A DNA stretch of 64,000 bases from a phage: NCBI GenBank assembly GCA_033286805.1, contig GCA_033286805.1_4727.1; one strand, given 5' to 3'. Position 1 is the first letter of the stretch, and each line of letters opens with the position of its first letter. Shown piece by piece: positions 6,527-26,601 of this stretch. The position numbers and the translations under genes are program-made. The notes beneath the pieces are model-generated. The model made no database searches and was not told the DNA's origin. It was given only the letters and a program-made list of their open reading frames with translations.

Positions 6527-7425
6527 ACAGCCGCCTCTTCTTTTCGTTTAATATCGTAACGAAGTTTCTTCAGTCGCTCTTCGTGATATTCGATCTGCTG
6601 CTGGATTTTTGGATCGTTGCCCGCATTCTGTTGCTTTTGCTTCAGTGACAAAATCCAATACTCCAACGCTTGGGCTTCTTCTTTGGCTGCTTGTAATGAT
6701 GCTTCTTCACGTTCGCTACGCCAGATGCGATAACGGTAAATAAGCGTGCTGGTCATTTGAGTGTCGGACCATGAGCCCATACGCATCGGGTCAGTATTAC
6801 CCGCGTTGTATAAGCCATTACCAACACCGTCTTCATCAGAAACCACAACATCCGGGATTTTATCCAACCCAGCAAGGATCTGTTGTTTCTGTCCGCACAG
6901 CACCTCGGTGGCAATGGCAAAACCGTACATGTTGGCGGTCAGGTAAGCAATCTCGTTTTTGGTGAAGAACTCACCAAGTGCTTTATCACCACCTGGCATG
7001 CTTTCGCAGATGACCGTTGCACGAAGCAGCGTACGAGCATAGCTAACGTAGAAGCCCAGGGACTCAACAAGACGTACCAGAGCAGCTTCTTTGAAACTTA
7101 GGCCGTCAGCGGCAACATCGATTTCCAGGTTTTTGTTAACACGTTTAACAATTTCTGGAATCAGGTCAACAGCATTACGTAGCGCTAAGTGAACGTTTTC
7201 TACCCAGCTTCCGGAGCGAACGCGGGTTAAACGCTGGTGCAGATCCTTATCAGCAAGTTTCCATAAGGCGCTTTCTCCCTTTTGGAGAAGCGAAGCGGAT
7301 GTCTCGTAGTAAGGAATCGCGGTGTTGTTGATTTCGTCACGGATTGATTCGAGTGCGTCAGCAACACCGGTGCGTTTAAAAAGCGGCTTCAAACCGCGAA
7401 TGAATTCTTTAAAATCGATTGCCAT
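6523..7425 (-). CDS. hypothetical protein
   Basis: 300-aa ORF, ATG with AGGTG SD. Confidence 0.65.
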   Translation of the reverse strand: MAIDFKEFIRGLKPLFKRTGVADALESIRDEINNTAIPYYETSASLLQKGESALWKLADKDLHQRLTRVRSGSWVENVHLALRNAVDLIPEIVKRVNKNLEIDVAADGLSFKEAALVRLVESLGFYVSYARTLLRATVICESMPGGDKALGEFFTKNEIAYLTANMYGFAIATEVLCGQKQQILAGLDKIPDVVVSDEDGVGNGLYNAGNTDPMRMGSWSDTQMTSTLIYRYRIWRSEREEASLQAAKEEAQALEYWILSLKQKQQNAGNDPKIQQQIEYHEERLKKLRYDIKRKEEAAV

Positions 7426-7464
7426 GAGTGAGCACCTATGCTATTTCGAAACAGGTTGCGTGTA

Positions 7465-8571
7465 TTAACGAATCTGTGGGACGTTTCCGGTACGGAGCGC
7501 CTGGAGGATCGTCAGGAGATCGGAACCCGAAGTTGACGAACTGTTGGATTTTTCCAGTTGCTTGAAGCTTACGGTGGTCCCTTGATCCAAGCTGTGGAAA
7601 TAGAAGGTCACCATCTCTTCAGCTTCGTCGATGATGATCAACTGCATTGCGAGGGCTTCAGCCATGACTTTCTGACGTGTGGTATAGTCAGATAAACGAC
7701 GTCCGATCTTACGCTCGATGGCTTCCTGGTTAGCCTTAGAGATGATATAGGTGGAGGCGATGGCTCCAGAAGAAGGGATCTTTGTGCTCGCTGCAGCTTT
7801 TGCGGCATTGATGCGCGCAGCGTTAACAGCCTTACGGATACCCTCTTTATCCATGCGTGAGATTCGTTTATGTTCACGAACCAGATCGCTAAGCAGGATC
7901 ATATCGCTCCAGAAAGATAGCTCACCTGCCATCATGCGATGCCAACGTGCTCGCCAGGTGTTCTGTGGGCCACCGATCGCTAAAATCGATGCAAGCACTT
8001 CCGCCGGTGAACTTGCGATACGCATGCTGATGTTCAACGGCATTTTCATCGTTGCCTGACCATCGGTCAGCGTCACGGTTAAGAACTTGCCGGTAACCGC
8101 GTTCGCATCTTTGTTCAGCAATTCGATCGCAGCGTCGCTGGCTCCAACATCGGCGATATTTTTTTGTTTCCCCTGCAGGTTGAATCCTTTGTCATCAAGG
8201 AAAACAAGGCTTTTGCTATCCGCACTTTCCAGCGCTAATTTAACAGCCTTATCCATCAGGTTAGCGTTACGATTTGGGTTCACACGACCCAGCGTTTTAT
8301 CGACACTGATGTTACCCACCTGCATGATGGTATTCAACGCCAGTAAATAGAACCCGGTATACATGTTTTCAGCGGTGCGCATGCAGTTGCCTAACGCATT
8401 GCGTGCGTCGCTATAATACAACTCACGTTCAAAGATCAACGGCGCGATAACGCGTGAAGGTTGTGAGAGTTCAACCAGCGAACCTGGCTGGATAAGTTTA
8501 TTAACTTCGTAGACTTTAGCGATACCGGACGCAACAACGTTAACAGCGTCGGCAATTTCTGATGCTACCAT
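7465..8571 (-). CDS. hypothetical protein (possibly structural)
   Basis: 368-aa ORF, ATG with AAGGA SD. Confidence 0.65.
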   Translation of the reverse strand: MVASEIADAVNVVASGIAKVYEVNKLIQPGSLVELSQPSRVIAPLIFERELYYSDARNALGNCMRTAENMYTGFYLLALNTIMQVGNISVDKTLGRVNPNRNANLMDKAVKLALESADSKSLVFLDDKGFNLQGKQKNIADVGASDAAIELLNKDANAVTGKFLTVTLTDGQATMKMPLNISMRIASSPAEVLASILAIGGPQNTWRARWHRMMAGELSFWSDMILLSDLVREHKRISRMDKEGIRKAVNAARINAAKAAASTKIPSSGAIASTYIISKANQEAIERKIGRRLSDYTTRQKVMAEALAMQLIIIDEAEEMVTFYFHSLDQGTTVSFKQLEKSNSSSTSGSDLLTILQALRTGNVPQIR

Positions 8572-12871: not shown

Positions 12872-15800
12872 TTATCTTACGTTACTGCTATTCTGCTGTT
12901 CGCTGAACCAACCGTACACCTTGAGATCGGTACCATATCTCAGTGCGATATACGCATTCAGCGCAGCACAGAACAAAGACGCGAATGCCCATATCAGCGA
13001 AGGATCAACATCTTCCGTTACCACTGGGAGAGTATTATCCGGTTCCCATGATGGAGAACTGTCCATGAACGTCGTGTACCATTCCCGCCGTTGTTCTTCA
13101 GTGGTAAAGTCGCTATGGGGTTCCAATGCTTCTTTTGCCAGACGTCGATATTCGAACATATGCGTTGCTAAAGCCGATGAGTTACCAGATTCGCCTTCAT
13201 AGTTCGGATCCACCGCATAACAGAGTTCTGTGGAATCTAACAAAGCGACCGCCTGTGTGATGCTGTCGGCAGTGCCTGCACCATAGAGCTCGATAGACCG
13301 CGAGAGCTTCTCACAGAACGCATTTAACGCGGCAGGATTGGACACCTGAAGGTCAAGGCCTAATGTCCACGGATAGTTACTGAATACACCCGTAAACCGC
13401 GGCATAACACCCAACAGATGTTGTCCGATTACAGCACGGTTATAAACAGCCCGGTTATAGACTTGAAACGCAGCCTCCAGGGCTTGGTTATAATGACGAC
13501 GAAGTTCATCACGCGTGTTGCGGAACCTGTTTGCCGCGAGACTTGTGGCTGCAACGCTACAAACATCGTAATTGGTGGACGAGAGCACAACCTCGTTAAG
13601 ATCGAACGATTCCTGTTTCAATGTTCCGCTAACAGCTGCCGCTTCGCTGTTCGCTTTATCGACAACTGTACTCAAAGCGTTGATGTAACGTTTAGCTCGG
13701 ACCTCCAACCATTGTGCGATGCCGAGAATATCCACCGCAGCTTTAGCAAGATCGCGTGCATTCACGATTTCGTTCTTCAACGCCCCTAAACCTTTATTTT
13801 CAGGCGATGAGGCTTGTTGACGAATCATGCTGTTCAACATGGTAAGCAGATTATCCAACTCATGTCCGCTGACCTTGTTACGCGCATCGGTAATCGGCCC
13901 TTGCAGGAATTTACGGCAACCATCGTTGTATCGAATCAGTTTATCCACATCGATAGATTCGTTCGTAGATTCCTTGAACTGATCCTTCAATTCTTCACGG
14001 TAGTCGTGGATTTCACTTGCGAGATTATCGATAGTGATACCGTCATGTCCAAGAAGAACTTTATTGAAGTTACCTTTCTCGAATGCCAGAGCAAGACCTT
14101 CACGAATCTTAGCGAGTTTATCCTGATCGAGTTCACGACCGTTCGATAGCTCTTTCACTTCCGAGCTGATTAATGCCGAAACGTTACCCAGATTGTCGGT
14201 AACTCCTTTGAACGCTCCCGACCAAATCGTTCCTACTTCAGCATATTTCGCAATGGTCTGAATACCGACGGTGTGTAGCGACGCTAAACGTTTCTTCGTG
14301 CCTTCGGTAAGCAGAGCGTCTTTAGCTCGCGTAAGCTGACTGTTATTAGCTTCCGCCTGCTGAATCGCTGCTTTCGCACTTCCATTACGCCAGCTCTTAA
14401 CCAGCCAATCAACCAAACGTTTTAGGATATTGACGGTGTATTCCATTGTCCGCCGTAACGTTTCCCACGCGCTTTCTGCGGTATAGATGCCGTACCCTTC
14501 CATCTTCAACGCTTTCAAGCTTGTTTGACGTGCCAACCATTCTACCGTTGCAGAGCAAACGTTTACTAATGCTTCCAGGTAGTTGTAATAGACGTCTGTT
14601 GCAGTTGTTTCGTTGAACTTTGAATGCAGATAGAACTGATCGTAAAGTTCGTCGTCATCGCCGAAGGCATCATAGTTCCACAGTTCTGTATCACAACCTG
14701 TACCGCAGAAGACGTCAGCTGTCGTAAACTCTTTAAGCGCTTTAGCTGCGTCATTTGTCAGGAATTTACCTGTTTCAACTACATCGTCAACATTAAGCTT
14801 GGGGAGTTCGTCGGTGACTGGCTCTTCCAACATCAGCATATTGAAGAATGTGCTGTACTTGTATCCGAGCCATTTTGGATAACTGCTTTCAGGGATCGTA
14901 GACAGCGGCTTGATTTTCTTGGCTTCAGCCAATGTGTCTTTTGCGACCTGATATTGGTTTTCCCCAGCCTTGACGCGACGTAATGCTTTTTCTTCCAACT
15001 GCTTAAGCTTGGCATGGCGTGCTTGTGCTGGAGCTTCAACAAGTTTTTGTACCGACCGCATTGCAGAAATCGCTTCTTTTAATACGATCATCGGCATACG
15101 AACTTTACCGTCGTCGAAACTAAGAGCGCGAGCGACACGTTTACTTACGACCGGCTTATCATGGATATTTCGTTCCACCCACGATTTGTTTGCGTAAGTT
15201 TGAGCGATCTGCTGTTGGATATTTTCAAGGTATTTCCAGCTGCTGGATGCTTTATTATCCAAAAGCGGATTCGGTCCCTTCTTATCGAAAAGTTTCAGAA
15301 TCGGACCAAAGAAACCTTCCTGTACGAGTTCGATACGCGTGTATCCGTCAGCCGCTTCGATTTCTTCTTGGGTTTTGTCCCAGAGCTGTTCACTACGGAC
15401 AGCAGTAGCTGTTTCAGATACCGACATAACAAGCTCGGCAACAACTTCAGCGCAGGTCAGTACGGTACGCACGCATTGCAGTAGCATACGCTGGTAAACG
15501 ATACGGGCGTTTTGTAAACGTGCGATAACCGCTAAATAACCGATATTGTCAAGACGTTCGTCGGCTTGAGCAGAGTCAACACGTTCTATCAGTTGTTTAA
15601 CCAGCGCGGCTGTTTCCGGATAATCGTTCACGACGTCACGCATAATTCGTGATGCGAAAACCGCGGTACCTAAAACAGTGAGGAGTGTTTTACTATCCCA
15701 TTCTTTTGGTGTCGCTACCGATTCAGTAGGGATGAGATTTCCCGCCTGGTCGAAGTACGGCATAAGGACATTGATATCAGTAGACGGAACAGCAGTAATT

Positions 15801-16477
15801 GCGTTATACTCTTCATCCGCACCATCGTTGCCAGACGGCTGTAATGCAAGTGCTTGTTCAAGGATTTTGCGGTCAGCGGCATAAAGCGCCGACAGAGCTT
15901 GCGTTGCCGCAACCAAATCAACGATCGGCGACCAGAGCTGTGCGAGCTTACCTTCGTATTTCCGTACAGCGATAGCAAGGTCTTCTTTTACGTCTGGATG
16001 ATTGATTAAACCACCCAATGTTTCATGGATGGCAGAAAAACGTTCGGAATGTGCTTGTGTCAACGCGGTAAAATCGTCAACGTACGACGCATTTTCTTCA
16101 AGGCGTGTAAGTTCCTGCTCCAGGAGATCTTTTACTTGCGTAGCAGATGCGTTTCTCAACTGTTCACCGATAATCGCGATGGCTTTATCGACAACGCGAC
16201 AAGCTTCATTGAAGCCGGTTGTTGAAGGTAACTCGGTCCATAATGCCAGCGGCTTACCTTCCATTGCGTCAGGAAGGGAATATGACAACATTGCTAGTTG
16301 TTGACGTGATACCTGTTTGTCACGATGTAATGTTTCTTTCAACGCCAGAAGCTCATCAAGACCCACACTGCTAGGGATCGTGGGATGTGATACAGCGTTG
16401 ATGTTTTCTGCTAATGACTCAAGAACCAATAAACCATTTTCAGCGGAAGATAACCCTGCTTTAAGGTATTTGTTCAT
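12872..16477 (-). CDS. large putative virion/internal protein (1201 aa), paralog family
   Basis: ATG with GGAG SD; contains RIELVQEGFFGPILKLF, related to the motif in the 430-aa paralogs. Confidence 0.7.
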   Translation of the reverse strand: MNKYLKAGLSSAENGLLVLESLAENINAVSHPTIPSSVGLDELLALKETLHRDKQVSRQQLAMLSYSLPDAMEGKPLALWTELPSTTGFNEACRVVDKAIAIIGEQLRNASATQVKDLLEQELTRLEENASYVDDFTALTQAHSERFSAIHETLGGLINHPDVKEDLAIAVRKYEGKLAQLWSPIVDLVAATQALSALYAADRKILEQALALQPSGNDGADEEYNAITAVPSTDINVLMPYFDQAGNLIPTESVATPKEWDSKTLLTVLGTAVFASRIMRDVVNDYPETAALVKQLIERVDSAQADERLDNIGYLAVIARLQNARIVYQRMLLQCVRTVLTCAEVVAELVMSVSETATAVRSEQLWDKTQEEIEAADGYTRIELVQEGFFGPILKLFDKKGPNPLLDNKASSSWKYLENIQQQIAQTYANKSWVERNIHDKPVVSKRVARALSFDDGKVRMPMIVLKEAISAMRSVQKLVEAPAQARHAKLKQLEEKALRRVKAGENQYQVAKDTLAEAKKIKPLSTIPESSYPKWLGYKYSTFFNMLMLEEPVTDELPKLNVDDVVETGKFLTNDAAKALKEFTTADVFCGTGCDTELWNYDAFGDDDELYDQFYLHSKFNETTATDVYYNYLEALVNVCSATVEWLARQTSLKALKMEGYGIYTAESAWETLRRTMEYTVNILKRLVDWLVKSWRNGSAKAAIQQAEANNSQLTRAKDALLTEGTKKRLASLHTVGIQTIAKYAEVGTIWSGAFKGVTDNLGNVSALISSEVKELSNGRELDQDKLAKIREGLALAFEKGNFNKVLLGHDGITIDNLASEIHDYREELKDQFKESTNESIDVDKLIRYNDGCRKFLQGPITDARNKVSGHELDNLLTMLNSMIRQQASSPENKGLGALKNEIVNARDLAKAAVDILGIAQWLEVRAKRYINALSTVVDKANSEAAAVSGTLKQESFDLNEVVLSSTNYDVCSVAATSLAANRFRNTRDELRRHYNQALEAAFQVYNRAVYNRAVIGQHLLGVMPRFTGVFSNYPWTLGLDLQVSNPAALNAFCEKLSRSIELYGAGTADSITQAVALLDSTELCYAVDPNYEGESGNSSALATHMFEYRRLAKEALEPHSDFTTEEQRREWYTTFMDSSPSWEPDNTLPVVTEDVDPSLIWAFASLFCAALNAYIALRYGTDLKVYGWFSEQQNSSNVR

Positions 16478-19826: not shown

Positions 19827-21137
19827 TTAGGCGATAATGGAATCAAGAGTCGCTGCGGTTTTGAACAGATCGCTGTTCATTGTAGAAGAAAGGACTTGCT
19901 GAATTTCTTCCTGTTTAACCGCTTTACGAACCCCAGGACGAAGGATAAGCGTAACCATCTGTGAAAAGGTACGATTATTGTTCATCGCACTCAGCGTTTC
20001 ATCGATTGTTTTGATGGCATCCAGCGTCATGGAACGAACATCGCTTGGGATATCACGATCTTTCAAGCGTATAATTAAATCTTGTTTGATTTTACGGAAT
20101 CGTTCCATGTCGTTATCGTAAATGCTGTATGTCGGATCTAACCAAACAGAAAGCGCGGTTACAGCGACAACAACCAACACGCCGATAGCACCAACAGAAG
20201 CTAAACCTATCGCCATCATAGAAGCTATAGTAGCATCCATGATGAAGGAGAGCCAGAACATCGTTTTGGACTTCACGGAGTCTTTGCTATAAAGCCGATA
20301 CATTTTAGCAAGCCCGCTAACGAGATACTCCCCACCACCATGACGCGTAGCGAACTGATCGGCCATGAATTCGGAAGCAACGTCGGTATATCGTCCAGCG
20401 TTGTTTACATTTCGTAACTGCATTGCTCTGTTAGACACGTAAACCGTGTACCAGACACTACCATCGTCTGAATCACTGATTTTGTCTACGTCGACGTTGG
20501 TATCCAACGTTTTGTTTAACGCTTTCGCCAGTTCGATACGTTTTACCTTATCGGTTGTCCCCAACAGTTCACGCTGTACGGTCATGATTGAGGCTTCGAC
20601 ACGAACCGTTTCCGACAATGTTTCAAGGAAGGTAAATGCGTGCCCGATTTCATGCAGCATTATGGCTGCTTTTTCTTCCGGAAGAAAGGGTTCTGTCGCT
20701 GTTAGCAATTCATACGTGATGGCAGAACGAATCTTCAATTCTTCAAAGATACCGTAAACACGACCTTTTTCTAAATCGACGTAACCGACAGGCGTATCTT
20801 TAATCTTCTTAAGGAGCGTAACGCCATCAGCACCGCGCATCCATAACCGATGATAGTCTGCCAGAATTGTGTTGTTTGTCGAAATATCCGGTGGGTACAC
20901 GTAGGCATTCATTTGGCCCATTTTCACGTCGACCGAGAATTCGATGTTCAACCCCGTATAGCGTTTAACCATCTCGGTTAAACGACCGTCCTTGAAAACG
21001 TTTAAAACCTCTTTTTTATCCAGTCCCTGTTTGCTTCTGAAGAACTCGGTCATTTCCTTGAACAAGGAACCATCTTGAAACTTGATGGCCTCCATCGTTA
21101 ATTCGTCATGACCGTACACGCGTTGTAGTAATGACAT
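19827..21137 (-). CDS. putative zinc metallopeptidase (HExxH) with C-terminal transmembrane segments
   Basis: MLHEIGHAF motif; hydrophobic stretch WLSFIMDATIASMMAIGLASVGAIGVLVVVAVTALSVWL. Confidence 0.5.
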   Translation of the reverse strand: MSLLQRVYGHDELTMEAIKFQDGSLFKEMTEFFRSKQGLDKKEVLNVFKDGRLTEMVKRYTGLNIEFSVDVKMGQMNAYVYPPDISTNNTILADYHRLWMRGADGVTLLKKIKDTPVGYVDLEKGRVYGIFEELKIRSAITYELLTATEPFLPEEKAAIMLHEIGHAFTFLETLSETVRVEASIMTVQRELLGTTDKVKRIELAKALNKTLDTNVDVDKISDSDDGSVWYTVYVSNRAMQLRNVNNAGRYTDVASEFMADQFATRHGGGEYLVSGLAKMYRLYSKDSVKSKTMFWLSFIMDATIASMMAIGLASVGAIGVLVVVAVTALSVWLDPTYSIYDNDMERFRKIKQDLIIRLKDRDIPSDVRSMTLDAIKTIDETLSAMNNNRTFSQMVTLILRPGVRKAVKQEEIQQVLSSTMNSDLFKTAATLDSIIA

Positions 21138-21358
21138 TGTACACTCTCTAAATTTACGTAAATTTAAGGGCTAATGGATCGGCTGGCCGCACCAATCACA
21201 ATGTGTCCGCTGCTATGCAACGGCATTCATAGAAATACCTTTTGACGGTAACATCACCGTTCATAGCCCAAGCAATAAGAGTGGTCGGTTAAAAACAACA
21301 GAACGTGGGGATGATATAGAAAATCACCTTTTAACACTTATTACGAGTTTATCAAGCC

Positions 21359-23110
21359 ATGAGCGAACAAGAACGAAAACCTAAGAAGAAACTGCTCGGT
21401 ATTCAATGTCGACACATCAGCTATAACGAAGCGAACGATGGCAGCAAGAACGACCTCATGATCGCAAAAGAGATCATGTTCTTCGATGATAATACGCAAG
21501 CGACGAATCTTCGCTTCTTCGAGAATTACAAACGTCCGTTTTGGGTGACGGTAGAGAGTAAACGTAAGAACAAATATAAAAAGGAAAGCGAGAAGCTCTC
21601 GCATGTGCGTCGCTATGATGTCCGCCAAAGTGAACTGGTTGAAAAGATCAGTTCGGTGCTTTATAAAAGACGTGCTGATGACAACACCCGTCTACAGCAG
21701 CTTGCACGGAGTCCATACCTCTATGGCACGGACGTTAGCGCCAGCTGTTATTTAAAAACCCAGTACAACACAAAATGGCCGGAATACGTCGATAAATTAC
21801 CCGCTTCCATTGCCTGTTTCGATATCGAAACCGACGTTGTCCACGGGCACGGTAAGATCGTCTGTATGTCTATTACAATGGGATACAATGCGATACTTTG
21901 CTATACCAAGGACTTCGTTGGTCATATTCCGAATGCGATTGAGAAAACCCATGAGAAGATTCGATATTACCTGGCCGAACGTCTGAATACCAAAGAAGAT
22001 CCTCATGCGTTCGAAAAATATCATTACGATGTGCGAATCGTAGAAAGTCCGGCGCAAGCAGTCATCCAGTGCATGCAGAAGGTTCACGAATGGCAGCCGG
22101 ATTATCTCCTTGGCTGGAATATCGCGTTCGATATTCCGCGCATGCTCCAGGCACTGAACGAGGAAGGGTATCGTCCCGAGGATGTTTTCTCCGATCCTCG
22201 TGTACCACCTAAATATCGTATTGCTCGCTGGGTACCACCGAAGACAGACAAGGTATCTGCTTCAGGTCGTAAAACCAACCTTACCCTTGAGCAGACCTGG
22301 CCGATGTTTTATACGATGGCCACATACCAGGTTATGGATGCGATGTGCGGTTATAAGTTCGTTCGTTTAGGAAGACCGGATGAAGGACGCTATTCACTCG
22401 ATGCGGTGTTAGAGCGAAATAAATGCCATACGAAATTAAAAGCGATTCCTGGTACAGAGGGGTTCACGGAGCTTGCGTGGCACGAAGAGATGCAAACGAA
22501 CCATCAAATCGACTACGGCGTATATAACCTTTGGGATAACCAGGGTATCGAGGCGTTGGACCAGAAAACAAAAGACTATTCGATGACCATCCCTATTCGT
22601 TTGGCGGCGTCGGATTTGAAAGATTTCAGTTCTAACCCTAAACGTATCTGTGACAAACTTTTCTTCGTTTATCTTAACCGTGGGGAAGTCATGGGATGCA
22701 CTGCCGACGACATGACCCAGGAAGAAGATAAGTGGGTTATCTCACGAACCGGACATATCGTCACATTACCGTGCGATCTCATGGCGGACAACGGCATTCA
22801 TCTCTTCTGGGATATGCCGAACCTGAGAAGTTATATCCGTCTATTCGTTGCAGACCTCGACATTAGCAGTTCATACCCAAACGGGCAGATCCTGTTGAAT
22901 TTATCCAGAGCATGTGTTTTTCGTGAGCTCTCGCGCATTGAAGGCGTCTCTGACTATCAATTCAGGAAGTTAGGTATCAACTTTATTACCGGAGGTAAAA
23001 CGAACGCTGTAGACTTCTGTAGAATCGTTTATAAAGCACCATCGATGTTCGAACTCTTAGAACATTTCGATGCAACGCGTCCAAAAGGGGAAGCGCGGAC
23101 CATCGAATGA
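21359..23110 (+). CDS. family-B DNA polymerase N-terminal fragment (3'-5' exonuclease domain plus palm motif A)
   Basis: Exo I CFDIETD, Exo II GWNIAFD, Exo III YNLWD, motif A DLDISSSYP; ends ~75 aa after motif A with no motif B or C. No SD before the ATG. Confidence 0.6.
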   Translation: MSEQERKPKKKLLGIQCRHISYNEANDGSKNDLMIAKEIMFFDDNTQATNLRFFENYKRPFWVTVESKRKNKYKKESEKLSHVRRYDVRQSELVEKISSVLYKRRADDNTRLQQLARSPYLYGTDVSASCYLKTQYNTKWPEYVDKLPASIACFDIETDVVHGHGKIVCMSITMGYNAILCYTKDFVGHIPNAIEKTHEKIRYYLAERLNTKEDPHAFEKYHYDVRIVESPAQAVIQCMQKVHEWQPDYLLGWNIAFDIPRMLQALNEEGYRPEDVFSDPRVPPKYRIARWVPPKTDKVSASGRKTNLTLEQTWPMFYTMATYQVMDAMCGYKFVRLGRPDEGRYSLDAVLERNKCHTKLKAIPGTEGFTELAWHEEMQTNHQIDYGVYNLWDNQGIEALDQKTKDYSMTIPIRLAASDLKDFSSNPKRICDKLFFVYLNRGEVMGCTADDMTQEEDKWVISRTGHIVTLPCDLMADNGIHLFWDMPNLRSYIRLFVADLDISSSYPNGQILLNLSRACVFRELSRIEGVSDYQFRKLGINFITGGKTNAVDFCRIVYKAPSMFELLEHFDATRPKGEARTIE

Positions 23111-23158
23111 ATCAAGTATGTTGATCCTCGTTTAACAAAAAAGAAAACGCATGCGAAG

Positions 23159-23190
23159 CCCCTCCCCCTGGCGGAAGCCGGAGGGAGGGG
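23159..23190. terminator. GC-rich compound hairpin with flanking T/A runs (bidirectional)
   Basis: CCCCTCCC...GGGAGGGG stem followed by TTTT on plus and preceded by an A-run; between convergent genes. Confidence 0.65.
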
Positions 23191-23208
23191 TGGAGGTTTT
23201 ATGTGTTT

Positions 23209-23655
23209 TTAATTATTGTTGGTGGGGTTATCGTCCGGTTTATATTCAATGCCGTAGGCGACGTAACGGTCTGTTGTATGGACGACAAGCGAGATAGGGA
23301 AATCATAATGCATAGTTTTGTCTCGAACGAGCTGAGTAAAGAGATCCATATAACGTATTAAGTCTTCACTGGTGTAATCAGAAGGGAAGAAGACATCGAT
23401 GGTTATTGAATCTTCATAGAGGCGTATGACCAACTTATCCAGAAGGTCGGCATATTGGTTAGCCGGGGTGACGTCCAGCTGACAGATGTCACGATCTCCT
23501 TCGTCTCGCGATACCCACATCGTGGTATCCTGTAATGAGGTTTCAAGGATCTCGAAAACACATTTTGCTGTAAGTCTTAGTTTATTTGTTACGTCATGGT
23601 TAGGTGAATAATGGTCACGGATGTTTTTCACTGCGTCTTTGATAGAGAAAGTCAT
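23209..23655 (-). CDS. small paralog-array protein (family member A)
   Basis: Start moved to the ATG with AGGAA SD (MTFSIKDAVKNI); C-terminal DFPISLVVH...YGIEYKPDD shared with the neighbouring paralogs. Confidence 0.6.
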   Translation of the reverse strand: MTFSIKDAVKNIRDHYSPNHDVTNKLRLTAKCVFEILETSLQDTTMWVSRDEGDRDICQLDVTPANQYADLLDKLVIRLYEDSITIDVFFPSDYTSEDLIRYMDLFTQLVRDKTMHYDFPISLVVHTTDRYVAYGIEYKPDDNPTNNN

Positions 23656-23686
23656 TGTTGCTGTTCCTGTTATAGTCAACATATAG

Positions 23687-23717
23687 CCCTTCCCTAGCCG
23701 TCAAGGCCGGGGAAGGG
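23687..23717. terminator. hairpin CCCTTCCC...GGGAAGGG
   Basis: 8-bp stem flanked by ATATAG and TATG; between paralog genes. Confidence 0.55.
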
Positions 23718-23732
23718 TATGTTTACGTGTAA

Positions 23733-24128
23733 TTACTTTTTGGCGTCCGTTGGTGATTCAGTATGTTTCTCGCTGCTGGTGTACCAGAGTAGGTATGTCG
23801 GGAAAAGATTAACCTCTAAGCTAAACGGGATATTATATTTTTCTTCCATTTTGCAGAGATGTTCTTTAAGTAAATCCCTTGCTTCTTTGTTACGGCGAGC
23901 GGAGTGCCAATGTAGTTCTTCGTTCTCCTTTACCAGTACTTCTACAATGATACGCTGCTCGTGAACCTCGGTTTTCACAATAGCAAGTAAATCGTTACTA
24001 TCGAAACGGGTAAAACGAATGTACGAACCAGGCGTTTTTTCTTGTTTAACGATATCGATCATAGTAGAAATGTGTGGGTGATCGATGTTGTCGTTAACTG
24101 CTTTAACGATGGAATCTACAACGCTCAT
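23733..24128 (-). CDS. small paralog-array protein (divergent member)
   Basis: N-terminus MSVVDSIVKAVN resembles the paralog N-termini; AAGGA SD. Confidence 0.55.
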   Translation of the reverse strand: MSVVDSIVKAVNDNIDHPHISTMIDIVKQEKTPGSYIRFTRFDSNDLLAIVKTEVHEQRIIVEVLVKENEELHWHSARRNKEARDLLKEHLCKMEEKYNIPFSLEVNLFPTYLLWYTSSEKHTESPTDAKK

Positions 24129-24168
24129 TTTTTTTTATCCTTAATGTTATCGGTTTAGAAATAATATT

Positions 24169-24933
24169 TTATTTGCTGTTATCTTTATCGACAGTTGTTA
24201 CCCATGATGGGAAAGCCGGATGGAAACAGAGCGTGAACGTAACCTTCGTATCGTATTTAAACGCACGGTCCACTAGCCGAGTATCGAACGTTTCCCTTAG
24301 ACCGTCATCATCGTTATCGATGACAGCCATATCCCTTAATATCCCAAGCACGTTAACGCCATCTGGTGTCTGGGTTACAACAAGTCGTCGTAATGGTCCG
24401 CATGTATAATCACGTACGTATCCTTTCTTCGGGTCCGATACTCTATTTAACGCATCGTGATTTTCGATGAATTCATCGGCAATACGAGTGATGTGTTCCC
24501 TTGCTTTATCTGGATCGTATTCTGCTAATAGTTCCTTCGTGTCGAATGTTATCGCGTTATTAGCATTCGATTCAGAAGGGAAACATAAAACTAAACGAAC
24601 AGGGTATTCGTATTGATCTGTTCTTGTTTCGAAAGCATTAGCTAAACACGGCTTGTATGCCTTTGCGTCGACATTGTCCAAACACGGATGCAATAATGCA
24701 TGAATAACGGCACCATCATCAGTTAAACCGAATTCCATAAATTGTGTTTCATCGGTGTCTGTTACGGTTTTCTGAAGGTACGCTTTACCGTTAACAATAT
24801 CGGTATCCCACATATCGTCGTTTAACGATTCTTCAAACTTATCGAATATATGGTTTACGAGATTGACGAGTTCATCAATACGGCACTGTTGGTTGAATTC
24901 GATTAATCGTTGAACTTTATCTTTGATAGACAT
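24169..24933 (-). CDS. small paralog-array protein, apparently duplicated domain (254 aa)
   Basis: MSIKDKVQRL N-terminus; internal YEYPVRLVLCFP and VTFTLCFHP repeats; AGGAG SD. Confidence 0.6.
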   Translation of the reverse strand: MSIKDKVQRLIEFNQQCRIDELVNLVNHIFDKFEESLNDDMWDTDIVNGKAYLQKTVTDTDETQFMEFGLTDDGAVIHALLHPCLDNVDAKAYKPCLANAFETRTDQYEYPVRLVLCFPSESNANNAITFDTKELLAEYDPDKAREHITRIADEFIENHDALNRVSDPKKGYVRDYTCGPLRRLVVTQTPDGVNVLGILRDMAVIDNDDDGLRETFDTRLVDRAFKYDTKVTFTLCFHPAFPSWVTTVDKDNSK

Positions 24934-24935
24934 GA

Positions 24936-25394
24936 TTACCCATTAGCTCCTTCTTCGTCTGGAGAGTATTCCATCGTGTAGAATTCATAACCGTCGGAAA
25001 ACTTGAGTGTTAATGTAATAGGGAAATCGCACGGCATAGCTGATTTCGTAAATGCGTTATTAGCAACATCAGCCAACCGACGTATAGCATCAGTCCCGCT
25101 GACGCTGAATGGTAGTTGTATGTTGATAAGGATGCGGTGCTTGTAAACATAGAAAACAACGGTGCTGTCAAGATAAACGCTATGGAACGGTATTGTTGGG
25201 ATGCGTTCCACGATGGTAAAATACGTCCCGTCATTATCGCTATGTCCCACCGACCAAATATCGGATTTGCGTAGATTTTGTTTGAGAGATTCGATACTTC
25301 GAGTGACGGTATCAGCAACAGGTGCGACGTAAGCGTCTTTATGCGAGTCGAAAAGTTCGTTGACGTTAGATTCGAATGAATACATTGTTGCCAT
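24936..25394 (-). CDS. small paralog-array protein
   Basis: C-terminal DFPITLTLKFSDGYEFYTMEYSPDEEG; GAGGT SD. Confidence 0.6.
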   Translation of the reverse strand: MATMYSFESNVNELFDSHKDAYVAPVADTVTRSIESLKQNLRKSDIWSVGHSDNDGTYFTIVERIPTIPFHSVYLDSTVVFYVYKHRILINIQLPFSVSGTDAIRRLADVANNAFTKSAMPCDFPITLTLKFSDGYEFYTMEYSPDEEGANG

Positions 25395-25460
25395 TATTCT
25401 ACCTCAATGGTTTAACCGATACGTGCCCCACCTAACAAGGGACACGTTATCGTTGATTAA

Positions 25461-25955
25461 TTACTCTTCTGTGTTTTCATTGTCTGGATCGTAGTGGAAT
25501 TCGAACAGCCCTGAACCGTCGTGCCCGTTGATTGTTAGTATAACGGGCATATCGAATCCTCGGACACGCGAATGAAAACACTGTGCTAATTTTAGTTTGG
25601 CATATGCCGCTATTTCATTGATGGCAATACACGACTCACCTGTTATACTCAGTATAACGTCGATACTAATGATGTTATCATGCAACGCAAAACGCCAGCG
25701 ATCGATACGATTATTATCTTTATCGGTTGTCTCGTTTACGAGATAGACTTTATCATCAACCGACAAAGCGGGACTCCAGCAACGTTCGTTTATTAAATTC
25801 GCCTGGAGTTTTAGTATCGTCTGATCGATAATATCCCAACACGTAACCAGCGTGGTGTCAGGCACTGAGTAGAGAAGGGCGTGCACTTTATCCTTTATTT
25901 TAAGTGCTTCCGCAGGACGTCCGCAAATACCATGCATTTCAACTTTCTTATTCAT
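25461..25955 (-). CDS. small paralog-array protein
   Basis: C-terminal DMPVILTINGHDGSGLFEFHYDPDNE; ORF-track start is GTG 25961, ATG at 25955 preferred. Confidence 0.55.
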   Translation of the reverse strand: MNKKVEMHGICGRPAEALKIKDKVHALLYSVPDTTLVTCWDIIDQTILKLQANLINERCWSPALSVDDKVYLVNETTDKDNNRIDRWRFALHDNIISIDVILSITGESCIAINEIAAYAKLKLAQCFHSRVRGFDMPVILTINGHDGSGLFEFHYDPDNENTEE

Positions 25956-25998
25956 ATTCACTTCTTTCTTAATCTAAATGTTAGTTGGGGTGGGATGC

Positions 25999-26601
25999 TT
26001 ACATGCTTTCTAGCATATTGACGATCATGGAACCCATACCGAAACTCGGTCTTTCACCGATGTACTCAGCAAGCTGGCGATGGACGTCTTTTGGATTTCC
26101 TTCTTCACCATCGGCATCGATGTAAACCGAAAAAGAAACCGAATCGGAATCCACGCTGATAACCAGACGACGTTCATTGCGTTCCTTGAGCGTGTCGACG
26201 ATAGATGCTTTCAGTACCGGGATCGCATTCATCGCGTGCAAGATATCTCCATCGGGTTTCGGCAGATCGATCTTTTCTTTCAGGTCGATATTGATGTTGG
26301 TTACAATTGGGTTGAGGTCGACCTTGACGTAATCGTTAGGGTACATGCGAATAATCGCACGATCAATATCTGAACCGTAAAAGTCAACACGTGGCTTTAA
26401 CACTTCTTTGTTTGGATCCATGTTTTCATCCATACCTGCCTGCAAGAAACGTTCTACGTTATCCAGTTCACGATAAACTGACGCTTCGATTTCTTTCAGA
26501 TAGTTGGCTGCGGTTTCATGTTCTTTGCGCAGCTCGTCTTTAAGGAGCTGTACGGTGGTTTCACTGGAACGGATGCTGTTCGCGAATTGGGTAATTGACA
26601 T
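25999..26601 (-). CDS. hypothetical protein
   Basis: 200-aa ORF, AAGGAA SD. Confidence 0.6.
   Translation of the reverse strand: MSITQFANSIRSSETTVQLLKDELRKEHETAANYLKEIEASVYRELDNVERFLQAGMDENMDPNKEVLKPRVDFYGSDIDRAIIRMYPNDYVKVDLNPIVTNINIDLKEKIDLPKPDGDILHAMNAIPVLKASIVDTLKERNERRLVISVDSDSVSFSVYIDADGEEGNPKDVHRQLAEYIGERPSFGMGSMIVNMLESM

Follow-up and report, generated by a model that had tools for sequence, protein, structure and literature searches.

In phiKZ-like phages, the exonuclease and the polymerase reside on separate chains (Kazlauskas & Venclovas 2011, PMC3201878), and later accounts speak of a 'split subunit DNA polymerase' (Thomas 2016, PMC5105663) and of a divergent family-B DNA polymerase (PolB) without a fused exonuclease (Iyer 2021, PMC7824862). 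For Escherichia phage vB_EcoM_Goslar, a 2026 preprint reports a three-subunit polymerase, DNAPN–DNAPC–Rhc (Rani et al. 2026 preprint, PMC13648698). Here we analyse an open reading frame (ORF) at 21359..23110 on the plus strand of a 64,000-nucleotide stretch of phage DNA (contig GCA_033286805.1_4727.1 of assembly GCA_033286805.1), referred to below as the window. The ORF starts with ATG and encodes 583 residues. Its product is very probably DNAPN. The replicative polymerase of the Chimalliviridae is a heteromeric family-B enzyme that two genes encode in all nucleus-forming jumbo phages, and DNAPN is its N-terminal subunit; DNAPC would be encoded elsewhere, the active site would be composite and the split would be ancient. 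The split as such has already been described, in phiKZ-like phages (2011, 2016, 2021) and in Goslar (2026 preprint), whose own split polymerase is now being studied experimentally. The presence of motif A in DNAPN, an unannotated intron in the Goslar gene and a family-wide intron hotspot may be new to the literature. A replicative PolB encoded by two distant genes is a real and unusual feature, recovered in this case from raw sequence alone.

The nearest counterparts are the Goslar genes gp068 (DNAPN) and gp244 (DNAPC). Goslar, a jumbo phage that forms a nucleus, belongs to the Chimalliviridae (phiKZ-like), and the whole window is colinear with its 59.2–125.1 kb segment at 94–97% identity. The DNA of the ORF is 96% identical to that of Goslar, and its product is the orthologue of gp068, with 582 of the 583 residues identical once the Goslar gene is spliced, the same neighbours, the same orientation and membership of the same protein family, PHROG 3011. 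The window allele differs in having no group I intron or HNH endonuclease gene at motif A.

In Methanothermobacter thermautotrophicus, PolB is likewise split into two non-covalently associated chains, at a different break position and in an unrelated lineage. A Pfu polymerase split by engineering is active (PMC3061061); it too is a PolB made of two non-covalent polypeptides broken within the polymerase domain, but its break lies at the finger tip and its lineage is unrelated. T4-related Aeromonas phages 25 and 44RR have a gene 43 split into two cistrons, 43A and 43B, whose products co-purify and are active (Petrov et al. 2010, cited in PMC2988022). This phage PolB resembles ours in being encoded as two cistrons. 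There, however, the cistrons lie side by side with a short untranslated insert or a seg endonuclease gene between them, and the split is a recent one, seen in a single lineage. The Goslar halves are ~95 kb from each other, and their split extends through the whole family.

Family-B motifs in DNAPN

The ORF contains the three exonuclease motifs of PolB enzymes in their usual order: Exo I (DxE; FDIETD), Exo II (Nx2-3F/YD; WNIAFD) and Exo III (Yx3D; YNLWD). Their key residues, D155/E157, N254/D258 and Y389/D393, span 21821..22537 on the plus strand and were assigned from conservation and from alignment to Exo I–III of RB69 gp43. Palm motif A (ADLDISSSYPN; codons 499–508, 22853..22882, plus strand) follows and aligns with FDLTSLYPS of RB69. 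Among 96 DNAPN homologues, D155, E157, N254, Y389, D393, D499, D501, Y506 and P507 are 100% conserved, and D258 of Exo II is 99% conserved. DNAPN would thus carry the N-terminal domain, the 3'-5' exonuclease domain as well as the first palm segment with motif A.

The chain ends 75 residues past the Asn of motif A, and motifs B (KxxxNSxYG) and C (YGDTDS) are absent from the ORF. A six-frame regular-expression scan of the whole 64-kb window found no credible motif B or C: the sole match to the motif B pattern, at ~43151, lies in a frame interrupted by stop codons, and each of the four bare DTD matches lacks motif C context. The original prediction, made from the sequence of the window, had read Exo I–III and motif A in this ORF and a stop ~75 residues later, and both observations hold.

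Pfam returned only a sub-threshold match to DNA_pol_B_exo1 (E = 0.011), and a single-sequence search of the PDB gave only an intein match that is not significant (E = 0.51, residues 386–465). Both searches are too weak, so that profiles were needed, and one was built from the 96 homologues. Against the PDB, this profile matches RB69 gp43 in three colinear pieces (E = 6.8e-6). In a direct hhalign comparison, the match becomes a single unbroken alignment to RB69 residues 106–433 (probability 97.2%, E = 4.5e-11) that spans Exo I–III and motif A, the DNAPN consensus hvaDLDVsstYPn..ilNiSkeTT placing D501 opposite the catalytic D411 of RB69. The motifs of the original prediction therefore align to the exonuclease and palm domains of a known PolB structure.

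The AlphaFold model of DNAPN (pLDDT 88.3, pTM 0.83) is confident over residues 10–450. All of the top 50 PDB matches to this model in Foldseek are PolB enzymes (RB69, T4, Pol epsilon and Pol II; E = 1e-12 to 1e-9 over ~450 columns). Sequence identity to the RB69 and T4 gp43 proteins is ~13–20%. DNAPN resembles these proteins in its N-terminal domain, Exo I–III and motif A, which are colinear with gp43 residues ~106–433 (Foldseek E ~1e-12). It differs in that gp43 continues as a single chain through the fingers, motif C and thumb, whereas DNAPN stops near the equivalent of gp43 residue 433 and bears an extra tail of ~60 residues.

The C-terminal tail (aa 509–583; 22883..23107, plus strand) is delimited by its conserved residues and by low pLDDT in the monomer model. 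Its first ~15 residues align to RB69 424–433 and the remainder has no RB69 counterpart; conserved positions include N514, T519, E523, N541, N549 and P561. Residues 460–583 are not confidently predicted, and residues 499–523 have pLDDT below 50 in the monomer. Such poor prediction is as expected for a segment that folds against a partner.

The original prediction had called the ORF an isolated fragment of a split polymerase. The split is upheld, but the description as a fragment is not: PHROG 3011, annotated 'DNA polymerase', matches the ORF over its full length (profile positions 5–568 of 576, E = 5e-178), which indicates a complete member of a family of such size and a conserved subunit. A PolB that ends between motifs A and B does, taken alone, resemble a truncation, and the ORF might be what remains of a full-length polymerase gene, cut short by a recent frameshift or nonsense mutation, by a mobile element or by an assembly error. 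We give this explanation almost no credence. The same end point (~555–600 aa) occurs in hundreds of divergent homologues, the ORF is followed by a terminator and then by unrelated minus-strand genes, no frame of the window holds motif B or C and Rfam detected no intron in the window.

The family as a whole points the same way. A profile search returned 613 representatives at E ≤ 1e-30; the best 150 of the 613 all measure ~450–900 aa, with no case of fusion to a polymerase half. At cluster level, the halves are separate proteins in the best 120 DNAPN clusters listed among 209 hits and in all 112 DNAPC clusters. One 894-residue homologue (P0233) was considered as a fused form and rejected, its extra 330 residues being an acidic low-complexity tail without polymerase motifs. 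From these comparisons, the split appears to be an ancient, fixed, family-wide architecture and not a recent disruption. Assignment of 21359..23110 as an intron-less DNAPN allele thus draws on the ORF call, PHROG 3011, the RB69 hhalign match, PolB-only Foldseek matches and the near identity to spliced gp068.

The partner chain, the break and the active site

The original prediction held that the C-terminal part of the polymerase would be a separate gene elsewhere, and Goslar supports this. Its second 'DNA polymerase' annotation, gp244 (174,314–176,467; 717 aa), has as neighbours an SH3-domain gene and the gene of the chimallin shell; it is ~95 kb away from gp068, beyond the part of Goslar that the window covers. 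Pfam assigns gp244 to PF20286, 'Divergent Family B DNA polymerase' (E = 2e-204), and the protein contains motifs B and C. Across 111 DNAPC homologues, K152, N156 and G160 of motif B (KLDNNSLSG), D405-T406-D407-S408 of motif C (LSDTDS) and K484 and Y486 of a KHY (KKRY-like) motif are invariant. DNAPC genes encoding 99%-identical proteins are present on metagenomic contigs of 182–235 kb. The DNAPC profile aligns to RB69 437–505 and 705–767 and to the motif B region of vaccinia polymerase, and hhalign adds RB69 616–767. The DNAPC model (pLDDT 92.4) has T4 and RB69 gp43 as its best fold matches, but these are weak (Foldseek E ~1e-3, TM ~0.25), probably due to a large helical insert and to the domain arrangement.

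Another Goslar protein annotated as 'polymerase', gp039 (PHROG 2943), was considered as the partner and dropped, since it has neither DTD nor motif B and gp244 fits fully. The gp039 gene (locus L002, 39828–41624, outside the window) matches PHROG 2943 with E = 7e-120 and has no Pfam match and no PolB motifs.

RB69 homology stops at ~433 in DNAPN and starts at ~437 in DNAPC. On these alignments the chain break, at about gp43 residues 433–437, would fall inside the palm, ~20–25 residues past the motif A Asp and before the fingers. DNAPN would contribute its N-terminal domain, a proofreading exonuclease and, as first palm segment, the stretch that holds the metal-binding D501. DNAPC, as the gp244 orthologue, would contribute fingers with motif B, a second palm segment with motif C (DTD), the KKRY-like primer-binding motif and the thumb, and the two chains would associate non-covalently. 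About 60 residues past the break in DNAPN and ~77 before it in DNAPC have no RB69 counterpart, and both stretches are conserved. They probably form the subunit interface, and we propose that the DNAPN tail beyond the RB69 homology is a docking segment for DNAPC. A break between motif A and motifs B and C matters for any attempt to reconstitute or mutate the enzyme.

A rival reading is a split intein, as known from Nanoarchaeum PolB and cyanobacterial DnaE. The ~60 and ~77 extra residues beside the break and the marginal intein match in the PDB search (E = 0.51) could be counted in favour of post-translational rejoining of the halves by protein trans-splicing. That match, however, lies at residues 386–465, in the exonuclease domain, and is not significant. 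No conserved Cys or Ser nucleophile follows the last PolB-homologous residue of DNAPN, and the DNAPC N-terminus has no conserved His-Asn followed by Cys, Ser or Thr and is confidently modelled within the protein body. The preprint also has DNAPN and DNAPC as separate subunits (PMC13648698). Trans-splicing is thus highly improbable. The original prediction had asked for intron, intein or homing-endonuclease signatures at the break, and none was seen: Rfam found no intron anywhere in the window, and the conservation of DNAPN and DNAPC at the junction revealed no intein nucleophile or HN motif. The mobile element at this locus is known only in relatives, and it lies at motif A and not at the break.

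Two non-covalent chains broken in the palm would most likely form a composite polymerase active site, since each would provide a catalytic aspartate: the motif A Asp from DNAPN and the motif C Asp from DNAPC. Upstream of motif C, none of the acidic residues of DNAPC is invariant across the 111 aligned sequences. A single Asp column is near-invariant (94%), but the Goslar lineage has Asn there, and the position is helical in the confident model.

An earlier model places the active site differently. Kazlauskas & Venclovas described the polymerase chain of phage EL in 2011 as comprising palm, fingers and thumb with both catalytic aspartates, D229 and D398 (PMC3201878), whereas the present alignments put the motif A Asp in DNAPN. 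If the EL description applies, the ORF would be a stand-alone proofreading exonuclease subunit whose motif A-like stretch is vestigial, in keeping with the account of the exonuclease as a stand-alone protein encoded elsewhere (Iyer et al. 2021, PMC7824862). We consider this improbable. Complete conservation of D499, D501, Y506 and P507 in 96 diverse DNAPN sequences is unexpected for a relic, and the RB69 alignment runs continuously through motif A to 433, with DNAPC homology starting only at 437. DNAPC itself offers no invariant acid before motif C, the best column being the helical Asn of the Goslar lineage in the model (pLDDT 92). Group I introns, moreover, repeatedly target motif A in this family (see below), which also argues against a vestigial motif.

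Several points count against a composite enzyme formed by DNAPN and DNAPC. The motif A piece is weak when taken in isolation (1.3 bits in hmmsearch), though it forms part of the strong continuous hhalign match, and the hhalign probability of the DNAPC profile against RB69 is only 37.5%. The partner gene lies outside the window, and its presence in this phage is deduced from Goslar and from near-identical metagenomic genomes. The composite site is argued from sequence and profile alignments together with two monomer models. Finally, the 2011 model places both catalytic aspartates of EL in the polymerase chain, and EL D229 could not be placed directly on the present alignment. Taken with the conservation, the continuous RB69 match and the invariant motifs of gp244, these points leave the two-chain DNAPN–DNAPC polymerase as the preferred reading.

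Group I introns at motif A

Group I introns with HNH endonucleases occur in the DNA polymerase genes of phages SPO1/SP82 and Bastille (I-BasI), and such introns typically sit in indispensable sequence. Among chimalliviruses, the PhiPA3 RNA polymerase gene contains the gp210 intron (PMC11620839). The Goslar DNAPN allele resembles these cases in having an intron at a catalytic motif, and the window allele is intron-minus.

Goslar gp068 is annotated at only 499 aa and is followed by gp069, an HNH/NUMOD1 gene. Nucleotide identity between the window and Goslar ends at ORF nucleotide ~1493 and resumes 1.78 kb later. Within this gap, Rfam detects a group I intron core at 44.7 bits (E = 1.5e-9), just below the gathering score of 50. 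Joining position 7497 of the analysed Goslar segment (locus L001) to 9260 (NC_048170 81186|82949) restores the 583-aa frame with its single difference from the window protein, and the junction has U as the last exon nucleotide and G as the last intron nucleotide. The Goslar intron is thus 1762 nt long (L001 7498–9259; NC_048170 81187–82948), lies between codons D499 and L500 within motif A, encodes gp069 and is unannotated in the Goslar record. As a consequence, RefSeq lists gp068 as a coding sequence (CDS) cut short at 499 aa and has no annotation for exon 2 (~84 codons); the window gives the uninterrupted 583-aa sequence. In Goslar, a self-splicing group I intron with an HNH endonuclease gene would therefore break the coding sequence at motif A, and the window holds the intron-less allele, with the empty insertion site, located by comparison with Goslar, at 22855..22856 on the plus strand.

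Differences from Goslar cluster around the empty site. The window ORF and the spliced Goslar CDS differ at 85 nucleotides, 29 of which fall within nt 1441–1560 (window 22799–22918), ~60 nt on each side of the site (binomial p = 1.7e-13). All 29 clustered differences are synonymous, and they include AGY/TCN serine switches. Such clustering suggests either co-conversion of the tract or recoding at the homing site.

Interruption at motif A extends beyond Goslar. At least 17 other clusters of DNAPN homologues end exactly at HVAD, HVADLD or HVADLDV. Three of them (38–41% identical) were analysed, and in each an RNA resembling a group I intron separates exon 1 from a detectable exon 2; one has an ORF-less intron of ~420 nt and another a 2.4-kb intron with an HNH/NUMOD ORF. 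In one of the three, a distant relative (locus L014), the DNAPN 3' exon occurs twice, at 6838–7032 after the intron and at 8114–8296 after a minus-strand HNH_3 gene (7081–8043), which looks like a homing-endonuclease-associated partial duplication. From these sequences, the motif A codon block appears to be a recurrent group I intron target across the family. Repeated homing into motif A would provide independent support for its functional importance.

We lean towards a joint reading of these observations with the two-chain enzyme, in which a composite catalytic centre takes its motif A Asp from DNAPN and its motif C aspartates from DNAPC, motif A is a family-wide group I intron hotspot with at least three insertion registers, and the window and Goslar form a natural intron-minus/intron-plus pair with a heavily recoded homing site. 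The intron-less allele and the map of motif A insertions are relevant to intron-mediated phage competition. If the joint reading is true, the window/Goslar pair could be used for testing competition by intron-endonuclease interference among Escherichia coli chimalliviruses.

Gene setting and other features of the window

The ORF map bears out the original description of the gene as a lone plus-strand island: DNAPN stands alone as a plus-strand ORF, with long minus-strand blocks on either side, and both flanking genes, 19827..21137 upstream and 23209..23682 downstream, run on the minus strand. Between the upstream gene and DNAPN lies a divergent region of 221 bp (21138..21358, unstranded) that presumably holds promoters. 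No sigma-70-like site was found in 21138–21358; the scan, which covered 21000–23400, had a site count below that of shuffled sequence and is not informative here. The lack of such a site is consistent with transcription by phage-encoded RNA polymerases.

Downstream, the 98-bp spacer between the convergent genes folds with a free energy of -40.8 kcal/mol (z = -5.8; none of 200 shuffles is as stable). The fold is a GC-rich hairpin (23143..23210, unstranded) with an A-run and a T-run at its flanks, which a simple terminator scan missed and folding exposed. It is a probable bidirectional terminator, as the original prediction had proposed, and DNAPN would be transcribed as a monocistronic plus-strand unit ending at this hairpin.

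Elsewhere in the window, the minus-strand ORF at 12872–16477 encodes 1201 aa, whereas its Goslar counterpart gp064 has 930 aa; nucleotide similarity is lost over 14507–16179, and the ORF has a divergent or expanded middle section. At ~61024, the window has no counterpart of Goslar gp120 (121,396–122,103, a hypothetical protein), the alignment leaving Goslar at 121,394 and re-entering it at 122,106, a short way upstream of the gene for the NAD-dependent ligase. Downstream of DNAPN, megablast aligns no part of the segment at 23203–24950 to the equivalent region of Goslar, which marks the segment as a variable cassette. The minus strand of 23209–26601 contains six small ORFs (131–254 aa), several with similar acidic C-termini (…YKPDDNPTNNN, …YSPDEEGANG and …YDPDNENTEE), and is probably a paralogue array.

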